Origin: Spirochaetia bacterium
GTDB lineage: Bacteria; Spirochaetota; Spirochaetia; DSM-2461
Reading direction: 5' to 3'
NCBI GenBank assembly: GCA_963666985.2
Contig: CAXXIA010000002.1
Span: 3,057,189 to 3,121,188 of the forward strand
Length of the DNA: 64,000 bases
Made by a program: the position numbers and the translations under genes. Each line of letters starts with the position of its first letter. The first letter of the stretch is position 1. Positions 5,716 to 37,881 of this stretch are shown here, piece after piece. Under the pieces are notes generated by a model, which did not search any database, was not told the origin of the DNA, and saw only the letters and a list, made by a program, of their open reading frames with translations.

Positions 5716-6033
5716 TTATTCCATCCGAAACACTTCTCGAAGAGGAATGCTGATTGGAGCGTTGTTTTCTTCGGTCTCCATAAGGTCGGCCATGTAATTC
5801 CACCATTTTTGCACGGCCGGTTCTGCTCCCAAATCCTGAGAGCCTCCTTCGCCGGAAACCTTCTGCACGGCGAAGAGCGAGAGGGTTTGCTCATCATAAA
5901 AGATGCTGTAGTCCGAAATGCCGCCTTCCTTCAGAAGTTCCAGAATCTCCGGCCAGATTTCATCGTGGCGTTTTTTATATTCCTGAATGCAGGAAGCATT
6001 TTTGAGCTTCATCTTGAAGGCGACTCGGGTCAT
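5716..6033 (-). CDS. rhaM: L-rhamnose mutarotase
   Basis: 105 aa; EYKKRHDEIWPE, DYSIF, QKWWNYMADLME, LREVF are RhaM hallmarks; rhamnose context. Confidence 0.93.
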   Translation of the reverse strand: MTRVAFKMKLKNASCIQEYKKRHDEIWPEILELLKEGGISDYSIFYDEQTLSLFAVQKVSGEGGSQDLGAEPAVQKWWNYMADLMETEENNAPISIPLREVFRME

Positions 6034-6043
6034 GGGGGATCTC

Positions 6044-9584: not shown

Positions 9585-9812
9585 ATTCTCGACCTCTTAT
9601 TTCATCAGTTCTTGTTGATATGTCATATCTCTGTCCGGCGGCATCCTTCCTTCTCTTCAATTTTTTCAGGAACGATATCGCCGGATAAAGGGCCGCGCTT
9701 TTCGACTCTGGGTTTTATCGGCGCGGCCGTGTTTTTGAAGTAAACGAGGCCCGGCGCTTCTTTCCCCGAGGAAAGACGGCGGCCCGGACCTGTTCGGGTT
9801 CAACCGCCCGAT

Positions 9813-10826
9813 TTAGAAAATGGATGCGAAGTCCGCGACATTCGATGCGTCGAAGACGAACGGAGCGCCCATGATGGCTTCGCCGTTCGCGCCGACTTTG
9901 ATCTCGCCCATCCGGCCCGCGGCAATCACATCGCCTTCGCCGCCGGCGGCCTTGCCGGAGATAAGAGCTTCACAGATGTAAGTTGCGCTGTAGCCCAGAT
10001 CGACGGGATTCCACAGGGCCATCTGGCCGCAGGTTCCGTTTTCGATGTAGTGCTGCATTTCGGAGGGAAGTCCCAAGCCGGTAAGCTGCACTTTGCCTTT
10101 CAGACCTTCGTCCTCGATGGCCTTGGCCGCTGCAAGAACGCCGACGGTGGTGGGGGAAATAATGCCCGCCAGGTTGGGATACTTGCTGAAGAGGCCCACG
10201 GCTTCTCTGTAACTCTTATCCGAAGCATCGTCGCCGTAGACGACTTCGACGATTTTCATCTTGGCATACTCGGGCTTTTTGACTTCTTCGTACATCCACT
10301 TAATCCAGGCGTTCTGGTTGGTTGCCTGACTCGTGGCCGAAAGAATGGCGATTTCTCCCTTGTTGCCGCAGAGTTCGGCGATGAGCTGGACCTGCTGGCG
10401 GCCGATGAACTCGGCATTGGAAGGAGAGAGATTCACCATGCGGCCCGCGGCGGAGATGCCGGAGTCCCAGGAGATCACCTTAATGCCCGCGGCCATGGCC
10501 TTTTTGGTAACGGGCACTAGAGCGTCGGTGTCGTTGGCGCTGATGGCGATGGCGTCGACCTTTTGAGCGATGAGGGTTTCGATGATTTCAATCTGCCCCT
10601 CGGCCGTGGCCTGGCTCGGTCCCATGTATTCGACATCGATGTTGCCGAGTTCACCGGCCGCTTCCTGAGCACCGTCGTCACAGGCTTCGAAGAAGCCGTT
10701 TCCGAGGCTTTTTACCAGGAGAACCATCTTGTACTTGCCGCCATCGGCGGTGTCGGCTTTTCCTGAAGCGAAAACAGCGCCTGCGGCCAGAGAGAGCACG
10801 AGAAGGATGCTGAGAACCTTTTTCAT
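9813..10826 (-). CDS. Rhamnose ABC transporter substrate-binding protein
   Basis: Signal peptide MKKVLS...AVFA|SG after an AGGAG RBS; VKSLGNGFF, SATSQATNQNAWI, GLGLPSEM, LWNPVDLGY match the RhaS-type binding-protein family. Confidence 0.9.
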   Translation of the reverse strand: MKKVLSILLVLSLAAGAVFASGKADTADGGKYKMVLLVKSLGNGFFEACDDGAQEAAGELGNIDVEYMGPSQATAEGQIEIIETLIAQKVDAIAISANDTDALVPVTKKAMAAGIKVISWDSGISAAGRMVNLSPSNAEFIGRQQVQLIAELCGNKGEIAILSATSQATNQNAWIKWMYEEVKKPEYAKMKIVEVVYGDDASDKSYREAVGLFSKYPNLAGIISPTTVGVLAAAKAIEDEGLKGKVQLTGLGLPSEMQHYIENGTCGQMALWNPVDLGYSATYICEALISGKAAGGEGDVIAAGRMGEIKVGANGEAIMGAPFVFDASNVADFASIF

Positions 10827-11061
10827 TCCAAACTCCTTTTCCATAATGGAATATTTATTCAAATCATCGTTGTTCCCCGGAGCGTGATTTCACAAGAGAC
10901 GAAATCTCATATGCATGTGATTTATTCTCCGATCTTAAGCACTCATGCGACAATTTCTCGTATTGTAAGGACAAAAACTCCGATTCGAAGAATGGCAAGC
11001 CGGATATGGCCCTTCAAACCGCGATTTTTTTCAGCCGGTATCGGGGGAAAAGCCGGATGAA

Positions 11062-16323: not shown

Positions 16324-16328
16324 TAATA

Positions 16329-16387
16329 GCCAATATATCGGCAATAAAGCCGAAAATCAACAGTAAATACCAATATATTGGTATTTA
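16329..16387. promoter_or_regulatory. Two palindromic operator-like sites upstream of hipBA
   Basis: Perfect 24-bp palindrome TAAATACCAATATATTGGTATTTA (16364-16387) and a second core GCCAATATATCGGC (16329-16342); the cores are 40 bp apart. Confidence 0.65.
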
Positions 16388-16488: not shown

Positions 16489-17745
16489 TTAAGAGGCGGC
16501 TATCTTGCTCCTGTAATTCTCCACTTCCCAGTCGACGATAAAACGGACGAAGCGCTCTTCCATAAGTTTCGGCCCTCCGAAGCTTTCGGAAAAAGCGCAG
16601 ACTTCCAAGGCGTTCTTCAGCATGAGAACGGCGTTTTTCAGAGCTTTCTCCCCGGCCGCGGCAACCAGAGCCCCGCTGAACGCCGGTCCGTTGAAAAGGG
16701 TAAGGTTCGGCGGCTTTCCCCATCTGTTGATGTATTCACGCGCGCCCGATTCCCAGGCCGAGGCAATAACGGAGGCATCGCCTTCGGGCGTATCGGCGGC
16801 TCCGCCGAGTTTAGCGCCGCCTGTTTCTTCGCCCCGTGCCGCTTTTCCGCAGCCCGCGGACATGTTTGCGTTCAAATACAAGGCTCCCGGTCCCGAATAG
16901 ACGATATGATCCGGAGTAAGGCATCCGGTAAGGGGCGCGGCGGCTTCCGCCGAAGCAAGATACATCTCCAGTTCGCCCCCGGCGGCGAAAGAAACACACG
17001 CGTCCGCGCCGAACAAATCCCGAGCAACATCTGTTATTGCCGCGCCGTTTCCGAAAGCCTCCGTACGTTCCGCCGCCGTTAACTCGGCAGGCATTATTCC
17101 GGGCCGCCTCTGTAACCGAACCTCCAAAGCCTTATTCAAACGCTCGTATTTGCCTCGTACCTCATCGGCATCCCGCCCGCCGGCGAAAATCCCATGATTT
17201 TCCAGAAAGATGTATTCCGGCGAGCCCAGTCCCTTTACCGTTCGGTCCTCAAGCGCCAATTTAATAACATTGGCCAGCACGTATCCCGGATCGGTGTAGG
17301 GAATCCAAACGAGTTTATCGCCGATCAGTTCCGAAGCGATCCGCCGTCCGTCCGCTCCGCAGGTCAAACCGTTTATCAGGGTGGGATGAAGATGAACCAC
17401 CAAAGGCCAGGGCAGAATATCGTGCAGAAGGGTTTCCACGCTCGGCCTTCGTGATTCTCCCGGAAGTCTGGCGGCCATCATATCGGCCAGGACCAAACGC
17501 TCCCGCTCGGCCACGGCCGCGGCATCCGTTCCGGAAGGATAATCGGTTTTCCATATGGCCGCCAGTTTGGCGCGGTCCATATGGGCGAATCCTTCTTCGC
17601 CGATGGTCGCCAAAGGGTATCCCGAGGCCTTTATATACAGAGTCTCTCCGTCTTTCAGCGAAGTGTTCCCGCCTCCGGCCACCACCCAATTCGGATCGGA
17701 GCCGTATTCCCGGCTCAAGGTCACAAGATCATTCATTAAGCGCAT
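16489..17745 (-). CDS. Class II aldolase/adducin-family protein (rhamnulose-1-P aldolase-like N-terminal module of aldolase-SDR fusions, here without SDR)
   Basis: AGGGNTSLK, IKASG, RPSVETLLH, VVHLHP, LENHG, TPDHIVY; ends WEVENYR. Start 17745 (MRLMND, AAGGA RBS); ORF track extends to 17781. Confidence 0.85.
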   Translation of the reverse strand: MRLMNDLVTLSREYGSDPNWVVAGGGNTSLKDGETLYIKASGYPLATIGEEGFAHMDRAKLAAIWKTDYPSGTDAAAVAERERLVLADMMAARLPGESRRPSVETLLHDILPWPLVVHLHPTLINGLTCGADGRRIASELIGDKLVWIPYTDPGYVLANVIKLALEDRTVKGLGSPEYIFLENHGIFAGGRDADEVRGKYERLNKALEVRLQRRPGIMPAELTAAERTEAFGNGAAITDVARDLFGADACVSFAAGGELEMYLASAEAAAPLTGCLTPDHIVYSGPGALYLNANMSAGCGKAARGEETGGAKLGGAADTPEGDASVIASAWESGAREYINRWGKPPNLTLFNGPAFSGALVAAAGEKALKNAVLMLKNALEVCAFSESFGGPKLMEERFVRFIVDWEVENYRSKIAAS

Positions 17746-17749
17746 ATCA

Positions 17750-19006
17750 TCAGTTCCTTTTTGAAAGGACATCCTTTTCATACGCGTGTACCGCCTCTAT
17801 CAAACCGGCATCCGAAACAACGCCTGATTCTTCGCAGAAACGATTCCAAACGGTGCCGAAGGGAAGAGTCTTGGAGCGTTCCAGGAGCGCCAGCCGGGCA
17901 AACGCGTCACCGGCCAGATCATATCGGATCAGCGATTCATGCGGTTCCAGGAAGGCGGCCAAGAGACCCTTAAGCGCCGAGCGGGCGCCGATGGCGTAGG
18001 CACCGACGCGGTTCATCGTGGCGTCGAAGAAATCCAAACCGATATGCGTATCTTCAAGACGCCCGCAGCGTACCAGCTCCCGGGTTAAATCGGCGATATC
18101 GTCGTTGAAAATCACCACATGGTCCGAATCCCAGCGGACCGGCCGGCTCAGATGCAGCATCAGCTCATCGAAAAAGAGGTACACCGAAGAGAGCTTATCC
18201 GCGACCGATTCGGTGGGATGAAAATGCCCCATGTCCAGAGTAACCATCTTGCCGCGGCTGAGCGCGTATCCCATGTAGAACTCGTGCGAACCCACCACGT
18301 AGGATTCGCTGCCGATGCCGAAAAGCTTGGTTTCCACCGCGTCTTTCATGTGCCCGGCCGGATATTCGGGAGCCATCAGGGCATCCAGGGAATCCTTCAG
18401 GCGGGCCCTATAGCCCAGCCGGTCCACCGGAATGTCCTTCGCGCCGTCGGGAATCCAGGTATTGCAGATACACGGAGTGCCCAGCTCCCGGCCGAACATG
18501 TCCGACACTTCCCGGCTTTTCTTTCCATGCTCCACCCAAAAGTCCCGGATGCCCTTATCGGGGTGGGAAAGGGTGAATCCGTCTTCGGCTTTCTGATGAC
18601 TGAAGAATGTGCCGTTGAAATCCGCGCCCAGAGCGCGCTGTTTCAGCCAATCGGCCCATCCGGTGAAATGTTCGGGCCCGATGGCGTCTCTGTCGACGAA
18701 CTTCCCGCCGAATTCGCCGTAGCTCATATGCAGGGCCAAACGGTGCTTCCCGGGAATCAGGGAGTAAACCTTATCCAAATCCGTCCGCATCTCCGCGATT
18801 GTGCGGGCCTTCCCCGGATAATTCCCGGTTACCTGGATACCGCCGCCCGAGAGCTCCGCGCCCGGTTTTTCAAATCCGCCGACATCGTCAACCTGCCAGC
18901 AATGCAGCGACAGGGATATTTTTTTCAAAGCCTCAAGAGCCGCATCAACGTTTACACCCAGCGCCGCATATTGCTCCTGGGCATCTTTATAGACCGATTC
19001 GTTCAT
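17750..19006 (-). CDS. rhaA: L-rhamnose isomerase
   Basis: SLHCWQVDDVGGFE, TGNYPGKAR, WIPDG, ETKLFGIGSESY, DMGHFHPTE, RPVRWDSDHV, LDFFDA; ATG at 19006 after GGAGG. Confidence 0.96.
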   Translation of the reverse strand: MNESVYKDAQEQYAALGVNVDAALEALKKISLSLHCWQVDDVGGFEKPGAELSGGGIQVTGNYPGKARTIAEMRTDLDKVYSLIPGKHRLALHMSYGEFGGKFVDRDAIGPEHFTGWADWLKQRALGADFNGTFFSHQKAEDGFTLSHPDKGIRDFWVEHGKKSREVSDMFGRELGTPCICNTWIPDGAKDIPVDRLGYRARLKDSLDALMAPEYPAGHMKDAVETKLFGIGSESYVVGSHEFYMGYALSRGKMVTLDMGHFHPTESVADKLSSVYLFFDELMLHLSRPVRWDSDHVVIFNDDIADLTRELVRCGRLEDTHIGLDFFDATMNRVGAYAIGARSALKGLLAAFLEPHESLIRYDLAGDAFARLALLERSKTLPFGTVWNRFCEESGVVSDAGLIEAVHAYEKDVLSKRN

Positions 19007-19090
19007 TTTCCACCTCCGCCGCCCATAATAATAATTTCTTAAACGGGCACGTGCCTTGACGGAATCGTCGATTAATAGCACGATTTTGTC

Positions 19091-20101
19091 ATGACCCCCG
19101 AAGCCCGTCGAACCTCCGCCGTTCCCATCCCGCCCACGGGCGTTCCCGCCGATACCGGCGCTTTCTCAGCCTCCCTCCGGGCCGAGAATCTTCCTCCCCA
19201 CGCCGCGTCCTGCATAAGCGGCCCCTCCGTCGGCTGCCGGACTCCTGAGTTCAACATCGAACCCGAAGACGTTCTTCTTCCGCCCGGAGATCCGCTGAAA
19301 ATCATTCGCCGCGAACCGCAAATTCCCTATCCGCTTCATACCCACAGCTTCGCCGAATTGGTCCTCATCACATCCGGAACGGGAGGACACCGCGTTGAGG
19401 ACGGCCTGGTTCCCGTCGGCGCCGGGGATGTTTTCGTTATTCGGGGAGAAAAAGCGCACGGTTATGAAAAACTGAAAGATCTTTATCTCATCAATGTTCT
19501 TTTTCAGCCCTCCCTCTTGGAATATCCCATGCAGGACTTAACGAGACTGGCCGGATTCCACGCTTTGTTCTCTTTGGAGCCGCAATGGCGCGACGGAGGA
19601 GAAACGGTCCATTTGCACCTGGATGCCGGACGTCTGGATGCCGCGCTAACCCTTGTGGAGCGCATTGAAAGTGAACTCCGTGTCCGAGAGGAAGGCTATC
19701 GCTTCATGGCCGCGGCTCATTTCCTTCGCCTGGTGGGGGAGCTTTCCCGGTGGTATTCGGGCGCCTCCCATCCCGGAGCACGCCGGCTTTTCCGGATCGG
19801 CAAGGCCTTGAGCCTCATGGAGCACCGTTTGGAGGGCCCCATTACATCCGAAGAATTGGTCTCATTAACTGGTCTTTCCATCTCAACGCTGAACAGAGCC
19901 TTTCACCGGGCCGTGGGACTCTCTCCTTTGGCCTATCACATGCGGCTGCGGCTCCGCCGGGCCGGAGAAGTGCTGCGGAGTACGGATTTGAGCATCACGG
20001 AAACGGCGGGGCGCTGCGGTTTCGACGATGCGAACTACTTTGCCCGGTGCTTTAAGAAAACGATGGGCTGCTCTCCCCGGGAATACAGGGAACGAAACTG
20101 A
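19091..20101 (+). CDS. AraC-family regulator with cupin sensor domain (RhaR/RhaS-like), divergent from rhaA
   Basis: LHTHSFAELVLITSGTGGH cupin, C-terminal CGFDDANYFARCFKK. The first ~60 aa are low-complexity, so the start is uncertain. Confidence 0.85.
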   Translation: MTPEARRTSAVPIPPTGVPADTGAFSASLRAENLPPHAASCISGPSVGCRTPEFNIEPEDVLLPPGDPLKIIRREPQIPYPLHTHSFAELVLITSGTGGHRVEDGLVPVGAGDVFVIRGEKAHGYEKLKDLYLINVLFQPSLLEYPMQDLTRLAGFHALFSLEPQWRDGGETVHLHLDAGRLDAALTLVERIESELRVREEGYRFMAAAHFLRLVGELSRWYSGASHPGARRLFRIGKALSLMEHRLEGPITSEELVSLTGLSISTLNRAFHRAVGLSPLAYHMRLRLRRAGEVLRSTDLSITETAGRCGFDDANYFARCFKKTMGCSPREYRERN

Positions 20102-23936: not shown

Positions 23937-24695
23937 TTGCAGCTCCTCAATGAAAGAGAACGGAAAATCATAGACATTCTCATCGAAAATCCCCGCATGG
24001 GGATGAACGACATGAGTAAGCTTCTTGACGTTTCGACGGTAACCCTCCGAAGCGATTTCGATGATCTTGCCGATAAGGGCTACCTCATCCGAACTCGGGG
24101 CGGCGCCCTTCCGGCCTTTCATCCGGCCATTCTCGCCCGGCAAAAGACCTTTACCGAAGCGAAAACGGCCATCGCCAAAGCGGCCGCGGATCTCATATCC
24201 GACGGCGACACCGTCATGATTGAAGCCGGAACCACAACATCCCTCATCGGCCGTTTTCTGCTGGGCAAACGGGGAGTCAAGGTGGTTACCGATTCCACGC
24301 TCCTTTTGCCTTATGCCCGTTCCAATCCCGCACTGCATCTGACCATCGTCGGAGGCATCTTCCATCCCGAGGCCGAATCCATGGTTGGTCCCATCGCGGT
24401 TGATCACCTCAAGCAGTTCCATGTGAAGACGGCGTTCATCGGAACCGACGGGCTTTCGGTGGAAAACGGACTTACAACGCATATGATGGAAGCTACGGAA
24501 GTCGTTCGGACCATGCATAACAGGTCCGACAGAACGGTTCTCTTGGCCGATTCGGGGAAATGGGGACAGGCCGGTTTTGCACGCATCATACCCTTGGATG
24601 AAGTTGATATTCTGGTAACCGACTCCGGACTTTCGGAATCGGCCCGAGATGAAATTAGAACGATGGGGATAGAACTCCTCGTCGCCGAACCGTAA
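23937..24695 (+). CDS. DeoR/GlpR-family transcriptional regulator
   Basis: VSTVTLRSDF...RTRGGA HTH; EAGTTT, LADSGKW sugar-phosphate sensor; TTG start after AAGGAG. Confidence 0.93.
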   Translation: MQLLNERERKIIDILIENPRMGMNDMSKLLDVSTVTLRSDFDDLADKGYLIRTRGGALPAFHPAILARQKTFTEAKTAIAKAAADLISDGDTVMIEAGTTTSLIGRFLLGKRGVKVVTDSTLLLPYARSNPALHLTIVGGIFHPEAESMVGPIAVDHLKQFHVKTAFIGTDGLSVENGLTTHMMEATEVVRTMHNRSDRTVLLADSGKWGQAGFARIIPLDEVDILVTDSGLSESARDEIRTMGIELLVAEP

Positions 24696-24705: not shown

Positions 24706-26145
24706 ATGGCACAAGAAATCGTCATGCCCAAACTGGGCAACACCGTCGAATCGGTGGTCATCTTGGAATGGCGCAAGAATATCGGAGAGAGCATCGCCGT
24801 CGGGGAGGTTCTCTGCGAAGTGGAGACCGACAAAGCGACACTCGACGTGGAGGCCGAAATTGCTGGCACCCTTCTGGCCAGATATTATGAAGCGGACGAT
24901 GAAGTGGCCGTTCTTGTGCCCTTCGCCGTTATCGGCGAGGCCGGAGAGGATGTTTCTTCTTTTGCAGCCGCCGAAGCTTCATCTTCTGAAGCCTCATCCG
25001 TTTCGGATCAGGGCGCTCCCACCGATACCGGCGCTTCCTCGGCCGCCCCGGCCGCACAGACCGCCTCCTCCGCGGACGGGAAAGGCGGCGCCTTATCCGA
25101 TCAGGCCGCAGGCAACTCGGCCGCGCCGGGAATCTCTCCCCGCGCCCGAAACCTGGCCGCCTCGTCGGGCCTCGGCGGCCTTCCCGCCGCCGGCAGCGGC
25201 CCCGGCGGCCGAATCATCGAACCGGATGTACGGGCCGCCCTTGAGGGACGCATGCCCCTGACTCCCGCGGCCCTGGCCGCCGGCGGTCCGGCTCCCGCGG
25301 TCGGAACCGGAATCGGCGGCCGTGTGACGGCAGCCGATGCGGCCGGTTATGCGGGCCTTCCCGCCGGGGCGGCCGAGGCTTCCGCGGCAAGCCGAGCGCC
25401 TTCCATGCCCGCCGCGTCCGTTTTTTCACGTACGGAAGAGTTCCCCGGCCCCGTGGAGAGCATCCCTGTGAAGGGAGTGCGCAAAGTTATCGCCAAGAGT
25501 ATGTATGCCTCCCTGCATGAAACGGCTCAGCTGACTCTGAATTCCTCGGCGAATGCCGCCGCTTTGCTTTCCTGGCGCGCCGGCTTTAAGAACAGTCCGG
25601 AAGATATGGGACTCTCGAAGATTTCCATCAACGATTTGGTGATGTATGCCGTCGCCAAACTTCTGCCGCTGCATCCGGGCCTTAATGCCCATTTCCTGGG
25701 GTCTGAAATCAAACGGTTTCGGCATGTCCATTTGGGATGCGCCGTGGATACGCCCAAGGGACTCATGGTTCCGGTTATCCGTTATGCCGATACACTCTCG
25801 CTCTCGCAGCTCTCGGCGGAAACACGCCGACTCGCCGCGGCCTGCCGGGATGGAAAGGCCCTCCCCGATGAGCTTTCGGGCGGCACGTTCACCGTTACCA
25901 ATCTGGGTGCTTTCGGCATCGAGAGCTTCACTCCGGTTCTCAACGCGCCGGAAGCGGCCATCCTCGGTGTGGGGACTATCACGAACGCGGCCGTCGAAAA
26001 GCCCGACGGAAGCCTCGGAATCGAAAAGAGGCTGGGACTCTCGCTCACCATAGACCATCAGGCGGTTGACGGAGCGCCCGGTGCCCGATTCCTGAAGGAT
26101 CTCTCCGATATGATCGCGCATTTGGAATGGGCAATGGCCCTGTAG
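24706..26145 (+). CDS. Dihydrolipoamide acyltransferase (E2) with one lipoyl domain
   Basis: VETDKAT lipoyl-Lys, Ala/Ser/Gly linker, ISPRAR...GSGPGGRI subunit-binding domain, GTFTVTNLG, DHQAVDG catalytic motif. Confidence 0.94.
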   Translation: MAQEIVMPKLGNTVESVVILEWRKNIGESIAVGEVLCEVETDKATLDVEAEIAGTLLARYYEADDEVAVLVPFAVIGEAGEDVSSFAAAEASSSEASSVSDQGAPTDTGASSAAPAAQTASSADGKGGALSDQAAGNSAAPGISPRARNLAASSGLGGLPAAGSGPGGRIIEPDVRAALEGRMPLTPAALAAGGPAPAVGTGIGGRVTAADAAGYAGLPAGAAEASAASRAPSMPAASVFSRTEEFPGPVESIPVKGVRKVIAKSMYASLHETAQLTLNSSANAAALLSWRAGFKNSPEDMGLSKISINDLVMYAVAKLLPLHPGLNAHFLGSEIKRFRHVHLGCAVDTPKGLMVPVIRYADTLSLSQLSAETRRLAAACRDGKALPDELSGGTFTVTNLGAFGIESFTPVLNAPEAAILGVGTITNAAVEKPDGSLGIEKRLGLSLTIDHQAVDGAPGARFLKDLSDMIAHLEWAMAL

Positions 26146-26332: not shown

Positions 26333-27673
26333 ATGAGTAATTACGATCTGATCATCGTTGGCGGCGGACCCGGAGGGTACAACGCCGCCGAACGCGCCGC
26401 GGCCGGAGGACTGAAAACCCTGGTGGTGGAAAAAGAACACCTGGGCGGTGTTTGTCTGAACCGCGGGTGCATTCCCACGAAAACGCTTTTGGCCGCGGCC
26501 AAGCATTACCATATTGCAACAGGCAGCGCCGAGTTCGGCGTGAAAGCCGCCGATGTCACCATGGACTGGCCGACGGCCATGAAGAGAAAGGTCAAGACGG
26601 TCCGGGCTCTGCGCTCGGGCGTGGGAACCAAACTCAAGAAACATCACGTCGATGTTATCGAGGGAGAGGCGCGTTTTACCGGTCCTAAGGAAATCGAGGT
26701 GAACGGCGAACGTCACGGCGCCTCCAAGATGCTCATCGCCACGGGCTCGCGTCCCTTCATCCCGCCCATCCCCGGAGCCGATTCCCCGTCGGTGATGACC
26801 AGCCGGGAAATCCTGGATATCGATCACATCCCGGAATCCCTCGTGGTGATCGGCGGCGGCGTGATCGGTCTGGAATTCGCCTCGTTGTTCTCCACGCTGG
26901 GAACGAAGGTGACCATCGTGGAAATGCTCCCTGAGATCGTACCGTCGCTGGATGCCGAGGTGGCGGCTCTGCTTCGCGGGCGCCTGGAAAAGCAGGTAAC
27001 CTTTAAACTCGGCGCCAAGGTTGAGAAAATCGACGGAAACACGGTGCACTATACGGACTCAAACGGTGCGGGAAACGCCGCCGGCGAAGTTATTTTGATG
27101 TCCGTGGGACGTCGCCCCGTCACCGACGGCTTGGGCCTGAAAGAAATCGGACTGGATATTCAGCGCGGCGCGATTGTTGTTGATGAGCACATGAGGACGA
27201 ATCTGCCCGGAGTGTGGGCCGCCGGAGACTGCACCGGAAAGAGCCTCTTGGCTCATTCGGCCTACCGCATGGGCGAGGTTGCCGTCAACGATATGCTTTC
27301 CAAAGCGGATCGGATGCGCTACAGCGCCGTTCCTTCGGTGGTGTACAGCATCCCCGAAGCGGCGGGAGTGGGCTTAACCGAAGCGGACGCGGCGAAGGCC
27401 GGCCGAGAGGTGATCACCAAGCAGCTCCCCATGCAGTACAGCGGCCGCTATCTGGCCGAATACGGTCAGCAGCCCGGTTTCGGAAAAATCGTGATCGACG
27501 CGAAAACCCGCGTTCTTCTCGGCGTGCATCTGGTCGGCGCTCAGTGCTCGGAGATGATTTGGGGAGCCGCCGCTCTGATTGAGGCCGAATTCCGCGTGGA
27601 TGAAGTGAAGGAACTCATTTTCCCGCATCCGACGGTCTCTGAAATCATACGGGAAACGGCCTGGGAGTTTTAG
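26333..27673 (+). CDS. lpdA: Dihydrolipoamide dehydrogenase (E3)
   Basis: GGGPGGY, GGVCLNRGCIP redox disulfide, GGGVIGLE, HPTVSE; start MSNYD. Confidence 0.95.
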   Translation: MSNYDLIIVGGGPGGYNAAERAAAGGLKTLVVEKEHLGGVCLNRGCIPTKTLLAAAKHYHIATGSAEFGVKAADVTMDWPTAMKRKVKTVRALRSGVGTKLKKHHVDVIEGEARFTGPKEIEVNGERHGASKMLIATGSRPFIPPIPGADSPSVMTSREILDIDHIPESLVVIGGGVIGLEFASLFSTLGTKVTIVEMLPEIVPSLDAEVAALLRGRLEKQVTFKLGAKVEKIDGNTVHYTDSNGAGNAAGEVILMSVGRRPVTDGLGLKEIGLDIQRGAIVVDEHMRTNLPGVWAAGDCTGKSLLAHSAYRMGEVAVNDMLSKADRMRYSAVPSVVYSIPEAAGVGLTEADAAKAGREVITKQLPMQYSGRYLAEYGQQPGFGKIVIDAKTRVLLGVHLVGAQCSEMIWGAAALIEAEFRVDEVKELIFPHPTVSEIIRETAWEF

Positions 27674-27804: not shown

Positions 27805-30261
27805 ATGCCCAAATGCCAAATCGTCGACCCCAAAGAGGTTCGTAAAAGCGGTAAAATTAAGTTTAACGACATTCCGGTCAATCAGTATAAAAGCGACTAC
27901 GCCAAGGAAGTGAAGACCTGGGGCGTGGAACGGCTGAAAGCGGCCTACTACCACATGCTGCTTATCCGGGAATTCGAAACGGTGATGGATTCCATCAAGA
28001 AAACCGGTGCCTACAAGGGCGTGGAATACAATCACGCGGGACCGGCGCATTTGTCCGTCGGTCAGGAAGCCGCCGCGGTCGGTCAGTCCATGGCCCTCAC
28101 TCACGAGGACTTTATTTTCGGTTCCCACCGTTCCCACGGCGAGATTCTGGCCAAGACGCTTTCGGCCGTCGTTACGATGGACGAGGCGGATCTTTTGAAC
28201 ATCATGAAGGAGTACTGGGGCGGCGAAATTCTCTCGGTTGTGGAGAAAAGCGGATCCTCGGATGTTCGGGATTTAACCGTGGACTTCATCCTCTACGGCA
28301 CCATGGCCGAAATTTTCGCGCGGAAAGCCGGCTTCAACCGGGGCTTGGGCGGTTCCATGCATACCTTCTTCCCGCCCTTCGGCTCCATGCCGAACAACGC
28401 CATCGTGGGCGGAAGCGGCGATATTTCCGTCGGAGCGGCGCTTTACAAGAGAATCAACCGGAAGCCGGGCATCGTTATCGGCAACATCGGTGATGCCGCC
28501 ATGGGCTGCGGACCGGTGTGGGAAGGCCTGATGATGGCTTCGATGGATCAGTACAAAACCCTCTGGGACAAGGAGGTGGGCGGTGCGCCTCCGGTGCTGC
28601 TGAATTTCTTCAACAATTTCTACGGCATGGGCGGTCAGCCGGTGGGCGAAACCATGGGATTCGGCATGCTGGCCCGATTGGGCGCCGGAATCAATCCCGA
28701 CAATATGCATTCCGAACGGGTGGACGGCTATAATCCGCTGGCGGTGGCCGACGCCACGGCCCGAAAGAAGAAGATTCTCCTCGCCGGCGACGGTCCTGCC
28801 ATGCTGGATGTGGTGACTTACCGGCTTTCGGGCCACAGTCCTTCGGACGCATCGAGCTACCGCACCAAGGAAGAAACCGAACTCTGGCAGGCTCAGGACT
28901 GTCTTGAAGGTTACGAGGCCTATCTGAAAAAGAACGGAGCCCTGGACGATTCGGCCATAGGCGCGTATCGGGAAACGGTGGATAAAAAGCTGATGGATAC
29001 GTTCCTGAAAGCCATCGATTTGAAGATTTCACCGCGGCCCGAAGGACGCTTTATCGAGTCGGTTATGTTCTCCAACCAAAAAGTGGAGGCCTTCGACGAC
29101 AGAGAGCCTGAAATGCTCCAGAAGCCGGAAGACAATGAGCGGGTGAAGAGTCTGAAGAAGAAGATCCGGAGTGCCAAGGACGAGAACGGCAAGCCGGTGA
29201 GTTCCGCCAAGCTGTTCGCGTTCCGGGATGCGCTTTTCGAGGCCATGATTCACCGTTATTCCATCGATCCGACTCTGGCGGCCTGGGGCGAGGAAAACCG
29301 GGACTGGGGCGGAGCTTTCGCGGTTTACAGAGGGCTCACCGAAGCGATTCCCTACCACCGGCTGTTCAATTCTCCGATTTCCGAAGGCGCCATCGTCGGC
29401 GCGGGCGTGGGGTATGCCCTCTCGGGCGGCCGGGCGGTTGTGGAACTGATGTACTGCGACTTCCTGGGCCGGGCCGGGGACGAGGTGTTCAACCAGATGT
29501 CCAAGTGGCAGAGCATGAGCGCCGGTGTTCTGAAAATGCCTCTGACTCTGCGGGTTTCGGTGGGCGCCAAGTACGGGGCGCAGCATGCTCAGGACTGGAC
29601 CTCCCTGGTGGCTCATATCCCCGGACTGAAAGTCTATTTCCCGGCGACTCCCACGGACGCCAAGGGTATGCTGAACCTGGCCCTTTCCGGCACCGATCCG
29701 GTGGTGTTCCTGGAGAGCCAGAGACTCTACGGCATCGGAGAAGAGTTCGAACCGGGCGGTGTCCCCGAGGGCTATTACGAAACCCCCGAAGGTGTTCCCG
29801 CGGTGCGGAAGCAGGGAAAGGATCTGACGATCATCACTTTGGGCGCGACGCTTTACACGGCGCTGAAGGCCGCGGACACGTTGGCCGAAACATACGGGGT
29901 GGACGCCGAGGTTATCGATATGCGCTTCGTGAATCCGCTGAATTACGATGTTCTGGCCGAATCGGTGAAAAAGACCGGCCGGGTGATTTTGGCTTCCGAC
30001 GCGGTGGAGCGGGGCAACTATCTGCAGACCGTGGCCAACAATTTGAGCCAGATCTGCTTCGACTCTCTGGATGCCCCGCCGGTGGTGCTGGGGTCACGCA
30101 ACTGGATTTCTCCGGCGGCGGAAATGGAGAGCGACTTCTTTCCGCAGAGCGAATGGCTTATAGACCTGGTGCATGAGCGGATTCTTCCTCTTAAGGGTCA
30201 TGTTCCCACAACGGTACAGACCATCGGCGAACTGATTCGCCGGGAGAGGAGCGGCGTGTGA
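27805..30261 (+). CDS. ThDP-dependent dehydrogenase E1 with fused alpha and beta subunits (acetoin/2-oxoacid dehydrogenase-like)
   Basis: Alpha: [23 protein letters not shown]...NN ThDP motif, YRLSGHS. Beta: GEE, SPISEG, ELMYCDF, AQH, IDMR. Start MPKCQ after AAGGAG. Confidence 0.92.
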
Positions 30262-31595
30262 GCAGCAAGGCCGAACTGGAGGCTTTGAGACTCGACGGGA
30301 GCGACGCGGCCTCCCGGCTGGCGCGGCTGGAGGAAAAGCTGGCGGCGGATCGCACGGCGGGGTTCGCTCCGCCGAAGACCGGCGAGGTGAACAACCATAT
30401 CCACACGAGTTACTCTTTCAGTCCTTATTCGCCCGCCGAGGCGGCCTACGGCGCCTGGCGGGCCGGGCTGGAAGCGGCCGGGATTGTGGACCATGAATCG
30501 GTTTCCGGCTGCGCCGAAATGAGTGAAGCCGGAAAACGGATCGGTCTGGGCGTAACCTCGGGCTGCGAGCTTCGGGTGGATGCCGCCGGGACGCCGCTTG
30601 AGGGCCGCCGGATTAACAATCCGGACTCGCTGGGGCTGCTGTACATGGTGATTCACGGCATCCCGAAAAGCGGCCTGGCCGAAGTGGACGCGTACCTGGC
30701 GAAAATCCGGAAATCCCGGAACGCGAGAATGCGGGACCAGACCGCGGCGCTGAACGGTATTCTGGCCGAAGCGGGACTGCCGATCCTGGATTTCGATGAC
30801 GATGTGGCGGCGATTTCCAGGAGTGCCGAGGGCGGCAGCATCACCGAACGGCACATCCTTTTCGCTCTGGCGAAAAAGGCGGCGGATGCCTACGGACGCG
30901 GAGAAACGCTGGTCGGAATGCTGGATTCGGCTTTCGGGCTCTCGGTGCCGCCGGTTATCGCTCAGCGTCTTTCCGATCCGGAGAATCCCCATTTTCTCTA
31001 CGATCTTCTGGGTCTGTTTAAAGGATCTCTGGTGCCGCGATTCTTCCGGCAGCCGGATTCCGTTGAGTGTCCGCCGGCGGCCGAAGCGACCGCCCTGGCC
31101 GCTCGGGTGGGCGCCATTCCCGCTTATCCTTATCTGGGCGATGTGGGCGAGTCTCCCACGGGCGATAAGAAGGCCGAGAAGTATGAGGACGATTGGCTGG
31201 AAGAACTGTTTGAGGTTCTGCCCGAGATGGGCTATAAGGCCGTAACCTACATGCCTCCGCGGAATACGAAAGAGCAGCTTTCGCGGGTGAAGGATTTCTG
31301 CGGCAAAAAGGGCCTGATGCAGATCTCCGGCGTGGATATCAATTCTTCGCGGCAGGATTTTCGGTGCCCCGAAGTAACCGATCCCGATTTCGTGCATTTG
31401 AACGACAGCACGTGGGCCCTGATTGCCCATGAACATCTTTCGAATCACGGCGGTCCGGGGCTCTTCGACGAGGCTTCGCCCATGAAGGACGCGCCTTTGG
31501 AAATTCGGCTGGATATTTACGCGAGAATCGGCCGGCGAATGGATCCTTCGCATCCGGAAACCATTCTCGCCGCGGCCAAACGGGAGGGCTTATGA
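30258..31595 (+). CDS. PHP-domain metalloenzyme (phosphoesterase-like, function unknown)
   Basis: [29 protein letters not shown] start overlaps the E1 stop and its stop overlaps the SDR start. Confidence 0.8.
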
Positions 31596-32794
31596 ATCGA
31601 TTGATTTTAACTCCGATACTCCGCGGGGCCTATATGGAAGCCCTCAAGGGGCCTGTTTTCCTTCTTTTCAGCGAGACTGAAAATACCGATCTGCCCGAGC
31701 TCGTTCTCGGAGGAGACGGCGGACGCCGAATGAAAGAGGACTTTTCCTCCGGCGAAGTCTATACCGCCGAAAACCGGGAGTGGGAACGGAAAATAGGAAA
31801 ACAGGCCCGGGACGCTCTGGCCGCGATGAAGGACGCCGACGGTTTACTGCCCGCCGGCGTTCGTGTCTCGGGTTTGGGGAGCTTTTATGCCGGAAGAACT
31901 TGGGAAGAGGCCGAGGCTCATCGCCGCGGCGCGGCCGGCCGTTTGCCTGAGGCGGCATGTTCCGGACGGGCCGATGTTGTTCGGGGGCGTATCGCGTTGG
32001 TAACGGGAGGCGCTCAAGGCTTCGGCGCGGAAATAGCCCGGGGGCTGGCGGATGAAGGAGCCTTTGTGTTCGTGGCGGACATCAACGCCGAGGGCGCCGA
32101 AGCTTTCGCCGCGGAACTGAACGGAACGGGAGCCAAACGGGCCGCCGCCGTGGCCGCGGATGTGTCGGATGAGGATTCCATTCGGGCCATGGCCGACTCC
32201 GTGGTCGCCGAGGCCGGGGGGCTGGATCTTCTGGTGAGCAACGCCGGCGTGCTTCGCGCCGGGTCGGTTCTGGAACAGCCCGCTCGGGATTTCGATTTCG
32301 TTACACAAATCAATTACAGCGCCTTTTTTATGGTGGTGAAGCACTGCGCTCCGGTGATGATTCGGCAGAGATCGGCGTGTCCGTCGCGAAGAAGCGACAT
32401 TCTGCAAATCAATTCCAAGAGCGGCTTGGCGGGGTCGAATAAAAACGGCGCTTATGCCGGCGGAAAGTTCGGAGGAATCGGCTTGGTGCAGAGCTTCGCC
32501 ATGGAACTGGTGGAGTACGGAATCAAGGTGAACGCGGTCTGCCCCGGCAACTTCTTCGACGGACCTTTGTGGTCCGATCCTCAAAAAGGGCTTTTCGTTC
32601 AGTACTTGAACACGGGGAAGGTGCCCGGTGCGAAGAGCGTGGCCGATGTGAAGAGATTTTACGAGGCGAAAGTGCCCATGGGACGAGGATGCGAAGGCGC
32701 GGACGTGCTGCGGGCCATCCTTTACTGCGTTGAGCAGGAATATGAAACGGGTCAGGCCGTGCCGGTTACAGGCGGTCAGATTATGCTGAAATAG
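31592..32794 (+). CDS. SDR oxidoreductase, sorbitol-6-phosphate dehydrogenase (SrlD/SorD)-like, with ~130-aa N-terminal extension
   Basis: TGGAQGFG, SNAG, QINSKSG, YAGGKFGG, QSFAMEL, VPMGRGC, TGQAVPVTGGQ. Confidence 0.87.
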   Translation: MNRLILTPILRGAYMEALKGPVFLLFSETENTDLPELVLGGDGGRRMKEDFSSGEVYTAENREWERKIGKQARDALAAMKDADGLLPAGVRVSGLGSFYAGRTWEEAEAHRRGAAGRLPEAACSGRADVVRGRIALVTGGAQGFGAEIARGLADEGAFVFVADINAEGAEAFAAELNGTGAKRAAAVAADVSDEDSIRAMADSVVAEAGGLDLLVSNAGVLRAGSVLEQPARDFDFVTQINYSAFFMVVKHCAPVMIRQRSACPSRRSDILQINSKSGLAGSNKNGAYAGGKFGGIGLVQSFAMELVEYGIKVNAVCPGNFFDGPLWSDPQKGLFVQYLNTGKVPGAKSVADVKRFYEAKVPMGRGCEGADVLRAILYCVEQEYETGQAVPVTGGQIMLK

Positions 32795-32810
32795 CTCGCC
32801 GAAGCGGTCC

Positions 32811-32910
32811 TTTGGCCTTAATGCGGCGCCGGGGAATTGATTGAATTGCTCACGTGCCGGAGCACGCTGCGCTTTTTTCGCCGGATTCCCCGGCCTGCCT
32901 TTAGGCCAAA
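32811..32910. repeat. Second palindromic intergenic element related to 26149-26309
   Basis: Nested arms TTTGGCCT/AGGCCAAA and GCCGGGGAAT/ATTCCCCGGC around core GCTCA-CGTGC-CGGA-GCACG-CTGCGCTTT. Confidence 0.65.
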
Positions 32911-32970
32911 TCGCTTGCTTGGGCAAACTGCTTGTTGCTGGTGAATGAAGGAAATATAAGGAGTAGTGAA

Positions 32971-34239
32971 ATGAAAACCAATGCGGTTCGAATGTACGGA
33001 AAGGAAGATCTTCGGCTCGAAGAGTTCGAACTTCCCGAGATGAAGGACGATGAGATACTGGCGCACATCATTTCCGACAGTATCTGTATGAGTACCTATA
33101 AAGCCGCCGAACAGGGAACGGCTCATAAGCGTGTTCCGGCGAATATCGCCGAAGAGCCCGTTATGATCGGTCATGAATTCTGCGGCCGGATTCTCAAAGT
33201 GGGATCCAAGTGGGCCGGGAAATACAAGGAAGGCGACAAGTTCACCATTCAGCCGGCGCTGAACTACAAAGGGAGTCTGGATGCTCCCGGATACAGCTTC
33301 CGGTGGATCGGCGGAGCGGCCACCGACATCCTCATTCCCAATGAGGTGATGGAGATGGACTGCCTTCTGCCTTACGACCAGGAAGCATATTACTTCGGCA
33401 GCCTTTCGGAACCCATGAGCTGCATCGTGGGCGCTTTCCGCGCCAGCTATCATGTTCCGCAGGGAACTTACAATCATCAGATGGGTCTCAAACCCGGCGG
33501 TACGATGGCCATTCTGGCCGGCGCCGGTCCCATGGGACTGGGCGCGGTTGATTTGGCTCTTCACGGCGATATCAAGCCGCGAAAACTGGTGGTGACCGAT
33601 ATCGACGATGCGCGGCTTGCGCGCGCCGAGTCCCTCTTTCCCGCATCCGAGGCGGAAAAAGTCGGCGTGGAATTGGTTTATATGAACACCGCCAAAGTCG
33701 ACGATCCGGTGGCCGCTTTAAAGGCGCAGGCCGGTTCGGACGGATTCGACGATGTCTTCGTTATGGCGCCCGTCGCTCCGGTTATCGAACAGGCGGACCG
33801 CATTCTGGGTAAGGACGGCTGCATGAATTTTTTCGCCGGTCCCACAAATCCCGAATTCACGGCGAAGGTCAACTTTTACGACGTTCACTATGCTTTCCAT
33901 CACATCGTCGGAACCAGCGGCGGAAACACCGAAGATATGATGATTTCCTTGGAAATGATGAGAATCGGACGTATTGACCCCTCCATCATGATTACTCATG
34001 TCGGCGGATTGAATTCGGTGATTGAGACCACGCTGAATCTGCCGAAGATTCCCGGCGGCAAAAAGCTCATTTACACGAACGTGAAGCTGCCGCTCGTCGC
34101 CATTGAGGATTTTGCCGAAAAGGGAAAAAGCGATCCGTTCTGGGCGGCCCTCGCGGAGATTACCGGGAAGAACAACGGGATTTGGAACGCGGAAGCGGAG
34201 GCTTATCTTCTGGCGAACGCTCCGGCCATCTGCGGCTGA
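32971..34239 (+). CDS. L-sorbose-1-phosphate reductase (SorE)-like MDR dehydrogenase
   Basis: DSICMSTYK, IGHEFCG, IQPALN, APGYS, EPMSC, GAGPMG, NFFAGP, GTSGG, THVGGL, PGGKKLIY; no structural-Zn Cys cluster, as in SorE-like proteins. Confidence 0.85.
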   Translation: MKTNAVRMYGKEDLRLEEFELPEMKDDEILAHIISDSICMSTYKAAEQGTAHKRVPANIAEEPVMIGHEFCGRILKVGSKWAGKYKEGDKFTIQPALNYKGSLDAPGYSFRWIGGAATDILIPNEVMEMDCLLPYDQEAYYFGSLSEPMSCIVGAFRASYHVPQGTYNHQMGLKPGGTMAILAGAGPMGLGAVDLALHGDIKPRKLVVTDIDDARLARAESLFPASEAEKVGVELVYMNTAKVDDPVAALKAQAGSDGFDDVFVMAPVAPVIEQADRILGKDGCMNFFAGPTNPEFTAKVNFYDVHYAFHHIVGTSGGNTEDMMISLEMMRIGRIDPSIMITHVGGLNSVIETTLNLPKIPGGKKLIYTNVKLPLVAIEDFAEKGKSDPFWAALAEITGKNNGIWNAEAEAYLLANAPAICG

Positions 34240-34380: not shown

Positions 34381-36183
34381 ATGAAGTTCAAAGCGGCGAA
34401 AACAGGAGAATGGCGTTATACCGGCGGAAGGCCTAAAATCGGCATCAGACCGACGATCGACGGACGTCTCGGCGGCGTTCGGGAGAGTCTGGAAGATCAG
34501 ACGATGAGCATGGCCAAAGCCGCCGCCGATCTTATCTCCGGGAAATTAAAGTATATCGACGGAACACCGGTGGAATGCGTTATCGCGGAGAGCTGCATCG
34601 GCGGTGTCGCCGAGGCTTCTGCCTGTCAGGCCAAGTTTGAAGCCTCCGGAGTCGGCGCCACTCTCACGGTAACGCCCTGCTGGTGTTACGGTTCGGAAAC
34701 CATGGATATGGATCCCAAGACTCCCAAGGCCGTTTGGGGATTCAACGGGACCGAGCGGCCCGGTGCCGTTTATTTGGCCGCCGTTCTTGCCGCCCATGCT
34801 CAGAAGGGGCTTCCCGCGTTCGGAATCTACGGGCGGAACGTGCAGGATTCAAGCGACACAAGCCTTCCCGCCGACGTGGAAGAGAAAATTTTAAGGTTCG
34901 CCAGGGCCGCCGTGGCTTTCGCCACCATGCGAGGCAAAAGCTATCTTTCCATCGGTTCTGTGTCCATGGGCATCGCCGGCTGCATTGTCGATGAAAGTTT
35001 CTTCCAGAATTATCTCGGCATGCGCAACGAGTACGTGGACATGAGTGAAATCGGCAGGCGCATCAGGGAAGAAATTTACGATACCGCGGAATACGAGCGG
35101 GCCCGTGCCTGGGTGAAGGAAAACTTGAAGATCGGGGCCGATCCCAATCCCGCCGACCAGCGGCATTCACCGGAACGGAAAGAGGCCGAATGGGACGAAT
35201 CGGTAAAGATGGCCCTTATCGCGAAGGATCTGATGAGCGGAAATCCGGCGCTGGCCGAAAAAGGTTTCGGCGAAGAGGCCCACGGACACAACGCCATCGC
35301 CGCGGGTTTTCAGGGACAGCGGCAATGGACCGATTGGAGAGCCAACGGCGATTTCATGGAGACCATGGCCAACACCAGTTTCGACTGGGACGGATTCCGG
35401 CAGCCTTACATCCTGGCCACGGAGAACGACACCCTGAACGGCATTACCATGCTGTTCGGGCATCTCTTAACGAATACGGCTCAGATTTTCAGCGATGTAC
35501 GCACCTTCTGGAGCCCCGAAGCCGTGGAACGCGTTACGGGACATAAGCTCGGCGGCCGGGGTGAGGGAGGACTGATCCACCTGATCAATTCCGGCTCCAC
35601 CTGTCTTGACGGTACCGGCGAGCAGACCGTAAACGGAACGCCGGGCATCAAGCCTTTCTGGGAGATTACCGAAGCGGAAGCCGAAGCCTGTGTGAAGGCC
35701 ACGAATTTTTGTCCCGGAAATTTAGGCTATTTCCGCGGCGGCGGCTATTCCTCCGATTTCCTTACCAAAGGGAATATGCCCTGCACCATGAGCCGTCTGA
35801 ACTTGATTAAAGGGCAGGGACCGATCCTGCAGATCGCCGAGGGCTGGACCGTGGAAATCCCGGGTGAGGTTCATGATAAGCTCGACAAGCGAACCGATCC
35901 CACCTGGCCGACCACTTGGTTTTCGCCTCGCCTTACGGGCACGGGGAATTTCAAGGATGTCTATTCGGTCATGGCCGCCTGGGGCGCCAATCACGGAGCC
36001 GTCAGTTACGGACATATCGGCGCCGATTTGATTTCCCTGGCGGCGATGCTCCGTATTCCGGTTTCCATGCACAATGTCGCAGATGAAGCGATTTTCCGTC
36101 CGGCCGCCTGGAATCACTTCGGTCAGGATAAGGAAGGAGCCGATTTCAGGGCCTGCGCGAACTTCGGCCCGATGTATAAATAG
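34381..36183 (+). CDS. fucI: L-fucose isomerase (also D-arabinose isomerase)
   Basis: [63 protein letters not shown]. Confidence 0.96.
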
Positions 36184-36381: not shown

Positions 36382-37881
36382 ATGAGCTACACAGTCGCCG
36401 TCTTGGACATCGGAAAGACCAACAAGAAAGTCGCTTTATATGATGAAGAGATGAACCCCATCGCCGTACGTAAGAGAAAGATTGAAACGTACGTACAGGA
36501 TGGTCTGGATATCGAAGACATCGAAACGGTGGTCGACTGGTTCCTTCAGCAGCTCGGGGAACTCGGGAAGGAATATGAGATTCGAAGCATTGCCGTTACA
36601 ACACACGGCGCCACGTTCGTTTGTCTTGACGGTGAAGGACATCCGTCGGTTCCGCCTGTGGCCTACACCAACGAAGTGGATGAGAGCGTTCATGAACGGT
36701 TTTGGGCCGCCATGGGAAACCCCAAGGAAATTCAGCGAAACACCGCAACCGCTGAAGTCAAGCCTTTAATCAATCCGGCCAAGCTCCTTTGGTTTTTGAA
36801 GGAAAGCCGGCCTGAGGATTTTAAGCGGACCAAGCATATCCTTCTCTATCCGCAGTACTTTGCCTACAGGCTGACCGGCAGGATCGCGGCCGACATTACC
36901 TATACGGGCTGTCACAGCTACCTCTGGGACTTCGGAAAGAACGATTGGTCGGAAGTGACCGATAAGCTTGGGATTCGCGGCATGCTGCCGAAGAAGCCGG
37001 GACTGCCGACCGAAGAGCTCGGTCCCCTTTCGCCGGAAGTTGCCGCACGGACCGGTTTGTCTCCGGATGTAAAAGTTACGCTGGGGATTCACGATTCCAA
37101 TTCGTCGCTCATTCCCTATTTGATTACTCAAAAGAAAGATTTCGTGCTGAATTCCACCGGAACCTGGTGCGTAGCCATGCATCCGGTGGACCAAGTGCGT
37201 TTCGAAGCCGATGAGCTGGGAAAGATGATCTTCTACAACTTATCGTTTGAGGGACGGCCGGTGAAAACGTCCATCCTCATGGGCGGGTTGGAATACGCCT
37301 TTTATACCGAAGCCGTCATGAAGCATCACGGCAGGCAGGAATGGCCGGATTATGATCCGGCGATGTATGCCGATATCCTTTCCCTGCCGCGGACCTTCCT
37401 GCTTCCGTCCCTGGTTCCGGGAAGCGGTCAGTTCCCCGACTCGGTCGCCAGAGTCGTTGACGAGGGAGAAGAGTATTCGCCGAACGATATCGAAACCGGG
37501 AACCGCTGGCCCAAGGCTTTCGAGGATTATCGCGCCGGATTCGCTCTGGCCAATCTTTCTCTGGCCATTCAAACCCGTATCGCGCTGCTTCGCGTCGGAC
37601 TTACCCCCGGAACGGAAGTGTTCATCGAGGGCGGATTCCGGCAGAACGAAAATTACGGCGCCCTTCTCGGTGCGCTGCTCCCGGAAAATCCTCTCTATTT
37701 AACGTCTCTTGATGAAGCGACAAGTTTCGGCGCGGCTCTGACGGCCAAAGCCCTGGCGGACGGTGTGTCCGTTGCGTCCTTAAAAAAGTATGTCAAACTC
37801 GACAAGCAGCCGGTAACCCCGGCCCGATTGGATGGGCTGGAGGATTATGTCGCGGCGTTTATGGCGTATATCGAGGGCTGA
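36382..37881 (+). CDS. FGGY-family carbohydrate kinase (fuculo-/rhamnulokinase-like)
   Basis: LDIGKTNKK, TTHGA, GCHSYLWDF, GIHDSN, NSTGTW, IEGGF; directly after fucI. Confidence 0.85.
   Translation: MSYTVAVLDIGKTNKKVALYDEEMNPIAVRKRKIETYVQDGLDIEDIETVVDWFLQQLGELGKEYEIRSIAVTTHGATFVCLDGEGHPSVPPVAYTNEVDESVHERFWAAMGNPKEIQRNTATAEVKPLINPAKLLWFLKESRPEDFKRTKHILLYPQYFAYRLTGRIAADITYTGCHSYLWDFGKNDWSEVTDKLGIRGMLPKKPGLPTEELGPLSPEVAARTGLSPDVKVTLGIHDSNSSLIPYLITQKKDFVLNSTGTWCVAMHPVDQVRFEADELGKMIFYNLSFEGRPVKTSILMGGLEYAFYTEAVMKHHGRQEWPDYDPAMYADILSLPRTFLLPSLVPGSGQFPDSVARVVDEGEEYSPNDIETGNRWPKAFEDYRAGFALANLSLAIQTRIALLRVGLTPGTEVFIEGGFRQNENYGALLGALLPENPLYLTSLDEATSFGAALTAKALADGVSVASLKKYVKLDKQPVTPARLDGLEDYVAAFMAYIEG

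Follow-up and report, generated by a model that had tools for sequence, protein, structure and literature searches.

A SorE-like and SrlD-like redox pair in a widely conserved operon, probably for fucose and rhamnose breakdown

A 64,000-nucleotide stretch of a Spirochaetia genome (GenBank assembly GCA_963666985.2, contig CAXXIA010000002.1, positions 3,057,189 to 3,121,188 of the forward strand; hereafter the window, in whose own numbering positions are given) encodes two adjacent oxidoreductases, a medium-chain dehydrogenase/reductase (MDR) resembling SorE and a short-chain dehydrogenase/reductase (SDR) resembling SrlD. SorE is reported to reduce L-sorbose-1-phosphate (L-sorbose-1-P) to D-sorbitol-6-P (PMC12817954). 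On which sugar would such a pair act here? This work places the pair in a widely conserved operon that is probably used for the breakdown of fucose and rhamnose. The best reading, towards which we lean, is an aldolase-independent 6-deoxyhexose route with a 2+4 split of the carbon chain, as opposed to the 3+3 split of an aldolase; we infer all of its chemistry. The operon is described from its sequence as a conserved, uncharacterised deoxyhexose cassette. Such a route is undescribed in the literature searched, in which coverage of subscription papers is mostly missing. Fucose and rhamnose make up a major part of the glycans of algae, plants and hosts, and the usual assumption is that anaerobes degrade them via lactaldehyde and propanediol. 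The two genes of the pair are:

31592..32794, + strand: SrlD-like SDR, first of the pair, 400 aa including an N-terminal extension of 130 aa; proposed polyol-phosphate dehydrogenase
32971..34239, + strand: SorE/YggP-like MDR, second of the pair, 422 aa; proposed ketose-1-phosphate reductase

The MDR begins with an ATG at 32971, preceded by a ribosome-binding site, and ends with a stop at 34239. It carries the motif DSICMSTYK at residue 36, and the SDR carries QINSKSG at 272 and YAGGK at 288; an earlier note on this DNA had described the adjacent pair by these motifs, and its coordinates and motifs were borne out. The Cys/His/Glu motifs are retained in the MDR, while the CxxCxxC structural-zinc (four-cysteine) loop is absent, as the note had held, and is likewise absent from SorE and YggP. 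The protein shares 52% identity with E. coli YggP and, over 418 residues, 49.5% with SorE of Citrobacter, and its nearest relatives are from uncultured Spirochaetaceae. E. coli YggP (L088:5001-6278) is itself nearer to the window MDR (52%) than to SorE (45%).

The SDR had been called SorD/SrlD-like, of which the SrlD part stands and the SorD part does not: its SDR domain is 38% identical to SrlD and 25% to SorD; for RhaW domains the figures are 30% (one from Rhizobium) and, over 186 residues, 38% (one from Rhodococcus). The best PDB match is 5O3Z. The score for the SrlD equivalog PRK12384 (224.5 bits) lies below the cut-off of 307 and is still the best of 213 families, and the domain groups with SrlD in a weak tree in which long branches meet (support 92/93, unstarred). 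Judged from its sequence, the window SDR is SrlD-like rather than SorD-like. A stand-alone SDR of 260 aa in an atypical context (L069) also groups with SrlD. Several Bacillota and Bacteroidota loci encode a chain of ~650 residues in which a fused aldolase-like domain precedes the SDR; the N-terminal extension matches the linker of these fusions in 19 of the 38 listed unfused SDRs, and in the window SDR only marginally (E 0.0098).

The pair belongs to a one-strand run of nine genes, in the order DeoR, E2, E3, fused E1, PHP, SDR, MDR, FucI and FGGY kinase, with 4-bp overlaps between E1 and PHP and between PHP and SDR. The first five of these, as well as rhaA and a class II aldolase-family gene elsewhere in the window, were missing from the earlier note. 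The E1 is predicted to depend on thiamine diphosphate (ThDP). The other seven members are:

23937..24695, + strand: first gene of the operon, a DeoR-family regulator (Pfam HTH_DeoR and DeoRC), TTG start, 10 bp before E2
24706..26145, + strand: E2 lipoyl acyltransferase (Pfam Biotin_lipoyl, E3_binding and 2-oxoacid_dh) with the ETDKA lipoyl motif and the DHQAVDG catalytic motif
26333..27673, + strand: E3 dihydrolipoyl dehydrogenase (TIGR01350, 481 bits vs a cut-off of 408.8)
27805..30261, + strand: fused E1 alpha-beta ThDP enzyme of 818 aa (Pfam E1_dh, Transket_pyr and Transketolase_C); proposed to cleave a 1-deoxyketose-6-phosphate
30258..31595, + strand: PHP-fold protein, candidate epimerase or isomerase
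34381..36183, + strand: L-fucose isomerase FucI (TIGR01089, 1035 bits vs a cut-off of 850)
36382..37881, + strand: divergent FGGY kinase (Pfam FGGY_N and FGGY_C_2) under all named cut-offs; proposed fuculokinase

How far this arrangement is conserved was assessed in the best 80 of 262 confirmed loci, which together with the window make 81; a match required ≥ 30% identity to the window proteins, and many loci are truncated at contig ends. The SDR was found in 58 of them, PHP in 47, E1 in 38, E2 in 31, an aldolase-like gene in 19, FucI in 12 and RhaA in 10, and eight further Bacteroidota loci carry a more distant PHP group. At the genome level, 50 of the 80 locus genomes were searched, all with the MDR and drawn from Spirochaetota, Bacteroidota, Bacillota and Atribacterota. 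E1 occurs in 45, PHP in 46, FucI in 39, RhaA in 30 and a RhaE-like protein in 38; the genomes are akin to one another and for the most part incompletely assembled, so that the counts are not independent tests. FucI and RhaA were counted by protein queries, which RhaI-type isomerases escape. When 220 other genomes of the phylum were searched for MDR, E1 and FucI, nine carried the MDR, eight E1 and seven both, in each case at most 10 kb apart, and FucI was present in six of these seven vs 44 of the 220 overall. The FGGY kinase lies within the cassette in G029, G087, G143, G168 and G218. One locus of atypical context (L066) has a two-gene E1 near its MDR.

Where would the ketose-1-phosphate come from? 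The absence of a sorbose or glucitol PTS, noted before for the window, extends to the genome as assembled by both profile and tblastn searches. EII-GUT (glucitol, PF03608) has no match in this genome, tblastn gave none in it for PTS proteins of the sorbose, glucitol and cryptic-mannitol types, and its single EIIC match falls below the cut-off. EII-Sor (PF03609) has no match in this genome, which is 93.1% complete (G000), or in any of the 50 MDR genomes, 47 of which carry FucI or RhaA; supply by an isomerase and the FGGY kinase rather than by a PTS, as the earlier note had proposed, is therefore most likely. As a side observation, no EIIC scores above the cut-off despite four PTS Enzyme I N-terminal domains in this genome (C1:152297, C1:316603, C2:1940958 and C2:2714121), one of which lies near a weak RpiB-like match and a transketolase match.

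A PTS-free L-sorbose pathway, with uptake by an ATP-binding cassette (ABC) transporter followed by a kinase, SorE and SrlD to yield fructose-6-P, is very improbable. L-sorbose-1-P does fit both enzyme templates exactly, and the supplement of PMC8579813 places the genes of the Caldicellulosiruptor bescii cluster, for which FucA, RhaD1, SrlD and SorE are listed, in a category 'Sorbose?'. The neighbours in the window, on the other hand, are fucose and rhamnose genes, the pathway offers no role for E1, E2, E3 or PHP, and the gene run holds no orthologue of SorC (no match) or SorD (25% identity to the SDR).

The rhamnose genes concerned include rhaA and a RhaE-like gene ~6 kb upstream of the operon on the opposite strand:

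5716..10862, - strand: sugar ABC transporter (binding protein, ATPase and two permeases) and RhaM mutarotase
16489..17781, - strand: RhaE-like class II aldolase-fold protein (Pfam Aldolase_II; RhaEW-type models) with PSVE, HLHP and ENHG motifs
17750..19081, - strand: L-rhamnose isomerase RhaA (PRK01076, 624.6 bits vs a cut-off of 572)
19091..20101, + strand: AraC-family regulator, divergent from rhaA

Taken together, these genes may provide L-fucose and L-rhamnose with a third route, in addition to the aldolase and non-phosphorylating ones, comprising redox transposition, oxidative cleavage of a sugar phosphate by a lipoamide-dependent ThDP complex to acetyl-CoA and a tetrose-4-P, and PHP as sugar-phosphate epimerase or isomerase, a combination to which we give an even chance. 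FucI, the family membership of which is shown by its score, and the putative fuculokinase would yield L-fuculose-1-P. The MDR would reduce C2 with SorE stereochemistry to L-fucitol-1-P, equivalent to 1-deoxy-D-galactitol-6-P, and the SDR would oxidise the methyl-adjacent carbon to 1-deoxy-D-tagatose-6-P, a methyl ketone with a neighbouring hydroxyl, as in acetoin. Acetoin dehydrogenase cleaves a methyl ketone with an adjacent hydroxyl, and by this analogy E1/E2/E3 would cleave 1-deoxy-D-tagatose-6-P to acetyl-CoA, NADH and a tetrose-4-P, which would be D-threose-4-P, or erythrose-4-P if 4-epimerisation comes first. PHP would adjust the stereochemistry, either as a 4-epimerase forming 1-deoxy-D-fructose-6-P or by isomerising D-threose-4-P; of all the steps, this one is the weakest. 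For rhamnose, entry would be via RhaA and a kinase together with the RhaE-like protein, which would convert rhamnulose-1-P and fuculose-1-P into each other or act on part of the flux as an ordinary aldolase.

The earlier note had the pair turn a ketose-1-P end-over-end into a terminal-phosphate ketose. This is most likely what it does, and the scheme was incomplete: a 6-deoxy sugar gives a 1-deoxy (methyl) ketose-6-P, which has no direct entry to glycolysis. Fischer bookkeeping was used to compare the candidate polyols with the SrlD substrate. The fuculose-derived polyol lacks the C1 hydroxyl and has a single mismatched stereocentre, C4; the polyol from rhamnulose has two mismatches, and this poorer fit would explain the RhaE-like protein in rhamnose users. 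In the polyol derived from D-ribulose, the carbon to be oxidised is of opposite configuration. D-arabinose as the main substrate was disfavoured, on stereochemistry only.

The E1, E2 and E3 proteins make up a 2-oxoacid/acetoin dehydrogenase set, with the ThDP motif in E1, the lipoyl and catalytic motifs in E2, and E3; three matches to the lipoate/biotin ligase family PF03099 are also present in the genome. The predicted structure of E1 was poor (pLDDT 66) and was not used, and residues D230, N270/N271, H344, E527 and H594 are invariant in 12/12 sequences. E1 scores under all pyruvate dehydrogenase (PDH) cut-offs (162 vs 394 for TIGR03182; 219 vs 321 for PRK09212). This bears on a second alternative, close to the version of the earlier note, in which a non-deoxy sugar (L-galactose, L-xylose or D-arabinose) enters through FucI or RhaA, the pair alone yields D-tagatose-6-P or D-xylulose-5-P, and E1/E2/E3 is a co-regulated PDH. 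FucI has a broad substrate range, stereochemistry permits the conversions of L-tagatose-1-P to D-tagatose-6-P and of L-xylulose-1-P to D-xylulose-5-P, and the window E1 is the sole match of an E1-type query in the genome. Besides conflicting with the PDH scores, this alternative leaves unexplained why the fused E1 and PHP accompany the MDR in nearly all of the 50 genomes (45/50 and 46/50), as well as the association with RhaA, RhaM and rhamnose transport, and we consider it rather improbable.

The PHP protein was modelled with good confidence (pLDDT 91.7) and has a TrpH/RNase AM-type fold, with 3O0F (Foldseek E 8e-12), 2YB1 (3.5e-10) and RNase AM as its closest structures. Residues H47, H49, E104, R198 and H199 are invariant in 14/14 sequences. 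The first motif has F54 at the position of an Asp of 3E0F, the last motif ends in an invariant N362, and within the Bacteroidota group H79 and H133 are variable. Compared with what we take to be the canonical three-metal ligand list, part of the usual metal set thus appears to be replaced; this, together with the position of the gene between E1 and SDR, makes PHP a candidate for the epimerase or isomerase step. An Atlas search labels the protein as PHP only, and its family comprises at least 4829 clusters, with homologues listed for Marispirochaeta aestuarii and Salinispira pacifica.

Is an aldolase needed? The earlier note had the pair replace the usual aldolase step. Carriers without a class II aldolase match do exist, as the claim would have it, whereas the window itself has a RhaE-like class II aldolase beside rhaA, and the replacing step is most likely that of the co-inherited E1/E2/E3 complex, which the note lacked. 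The class II aldolase family (PF00596) was searched in ten genomes, the second five of which were chosen for the absence of a RhaE-like gene. G168, G268 and G270, which carry FucI and the cassette, have no PF00596 match, class I aldolases not having been searched; G168 is 99% complete and has the cassette, an ABC transporter and fucI on one contig. An AraD-like gene is the sole match in G260 and G264, and the single-contig genomes G029 and G087 have an AraD-like and a RhaE-like gene; in G029, which has no FucI, the cassette adjoins rhamnose genes. The RhaE-like protein tracks RhaA, with strong matches (E < 1e-27) in 27 of the 30 RhaA genomes and 5 of the 20 without RhaA (11 of the 20 when weak matches are counted), and E1 is kept without it in eight FucI-only genomes.

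The RhaE-like protein, when aligned to FucA structures, shows the phosphate loop GGGNTS, the acid-base Glu and three zinc histidines in the PSVE, HLHP and ENHG motifs. RhaE is reported to have Asp at the acid-base position (PMC3870299), and two annotated RhaEW proteins have Asp at the position of Glu117 in RhaD. Since the Glu is kept as in FucA, unlike the Asp of RhaE, the RhaE-like protein may be a plain aldolase. A role as pure 4-epimerase was considered without a decision for or against it, the catalytic Glu being kept.

The most serious alternative is the usual aldolase cut, made by the RhaE-like protein, by a FucA-like one elsewhere or by an unrecognised aldolase such as PHP; the MDR and SDR would then interconvert lactaldehyde, propanediol, acetol or lactate, and E1/E2/E3 would oxidise one of these or pyruvate. 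We regard it as unlikely, though several observations speak for it or against the 2+4 route. In 21 of 22 RhaE-like sequences, the acid-base residue of FucA is conserved as Glu, in keeping with a true aldolase. The source genome encodes another five members of the class II aldolase family, of which three are unassigned, and G143, G218 and G225 have additional unassigned FucA-like genes. No tetrose-phosphate enzyme recurs in the compared loci, and the MDR is absent from 37 of the 44 FucI genomes of the phylum sample, so that the cassette is not required for fucose use generally. According to PMC4187192, Caldicellulosiruptor saccharolyticus ferments rhamnose to a 1:1:1:1 mixture of propanediol, acetate, H2 and CO2, as the aldolase route predicts; the supplement of PMC8579813 lists two predicted aldolases in the Caldicellulosiruptor cluster, and the same paper proposes its acetoin-dehydrogenase-like trio for the lactaldehyde step. 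The aldolase-SDR fusions have the architecture of RhaEW, reported as a proven bifunctional aldolase/lactaldehyde dehydrogenase (PMC3870299). Lactaldehyde reduction is also possible in the source genome, since five Fe-ADH genes score above the cut-off; microcompartment genes were searched for there and none was found. Set against this are the ~50% identity of the MDR to SorE, a sugar-phosphate reductase, the higher score of the SDR domain for SrlD than for RhaW and its place beside SrlD in the tree, and the three cassette carriers without a class II aldolase match. Given the predicted aldolases, the 1:1:1:1 ratio shows that the aldolase route dominates in C. saccharolyticus and does not reveal the role of the cassette.

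If the 2+4 route is true, cleavage would avoid lactaldehyde and allow all six carbons to be oxidised, with ~3.7 ATP per sugar vs 2 by hand estimate, hydrogen being removed. It would add a new reaction to the E1/E2/E3 family, give the PHP family a function and account for the unassigned genes in the rhamnose-induced Caldicellulosiruptor cluster.

Further features surround these genes. An IS481-like integrase/transposase (20363-21556) separates the rhamnose locus from the DeoR operon, and a HipA-like gene with a small upstream open reading frame without Pfam match (14624-16344, - strand) lies within the rhamnose locus, between the aldolase-like gene and a two-component pair. Translations from 38776-46469 (- strand) resemble components of type II secretion or pilus assembly. 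Elsewhere in the genome, a rhamnulokinase-like gene (C2:36337-37746, 50% to the kinase of L012) is found far from rhaA, and a second FucI paralogue (C2:2410982-2412769, 53%) stands by what, judged by eye, are a TRAP-like transporter and a TIM-barrel-like gene. A scan for promoters and terminators was at chance level (6 observed vs 6.3; 18 vs 18.4).

Among known systems, the sor operon sorCDFBAME shares with the cassette an MDR of the SorE type, in which the catalytic-zinc motifs agree and the structural-zinc loop is missing, and the reduce-then-oxidise logic. It differs in its mannose-family PTS, in SorC, in place of which the cassette has DeoR, and in SorD, to which the cassette SDR is not alike; in the cassette, the pair is accompanied by FucI, a kinase, PHP and E1/E2/E3. 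YggP of E. coli, from the cmtBA-yggP-glpX/yggF locus, is the closest annotated MDR relative found, but adjoins a mannitol-type PTS, and its record names only a 'zinc-binding dehydrogenase'. The QINSKSG, YxxxKFG and C-terminal motifs of the window SDR align with 5O3Z of the sorbitol-6-phosphate 2-dehydrogenase SrlD/GutD, from which the cassette differs in the equivalog score, the lack of a glucitol PTS and the N-terminal extension or aldolase-fold fusion.

AcoABCL, to which the E1/E2/E3 genes are likened by layout, in principle cleaves a methyl alpha-hydroxyketone to acetyl-CoA and an aldehyde; the cassette E1 has fused alpha and beta parts, a long N-terminal part and a sugar-phosphate enzyme context. 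RhaEW resembles the cassette relatives in its aldolase-II and SDR fusion (25-29% identity), but two fused relatives score 302 and 256 vs the cut-off of 567.75 for TIGR02632, Glu stands in place of the Asp of RhaE, the SDR half is nearer to SrlD, and the window has two separate genes. A further counterpart is the Caldicellulosiruptor cluster Csac_0865-0876 / Athe_0695-0706, which by its published labels shares SrlD, SorE, E2, E3, a single-gene E1, DeoR, RhaA and a hypothetical protein, and differs by also having a predicted FucA and lipoate genes. No passage on rhamnose or fucose was found in PMC8269263, and PMC11365079 contributed nothing further on the cluster. Csac_0865-0876 is reported to be strongly induced by rhamnose and to track growth on rhamnose in Caldicellulosiruptor, its other genes being left unexplained by the authors of PMC4187192; in the published accounts, the function is either left open or guessed to be lactaldehyde oxidation.

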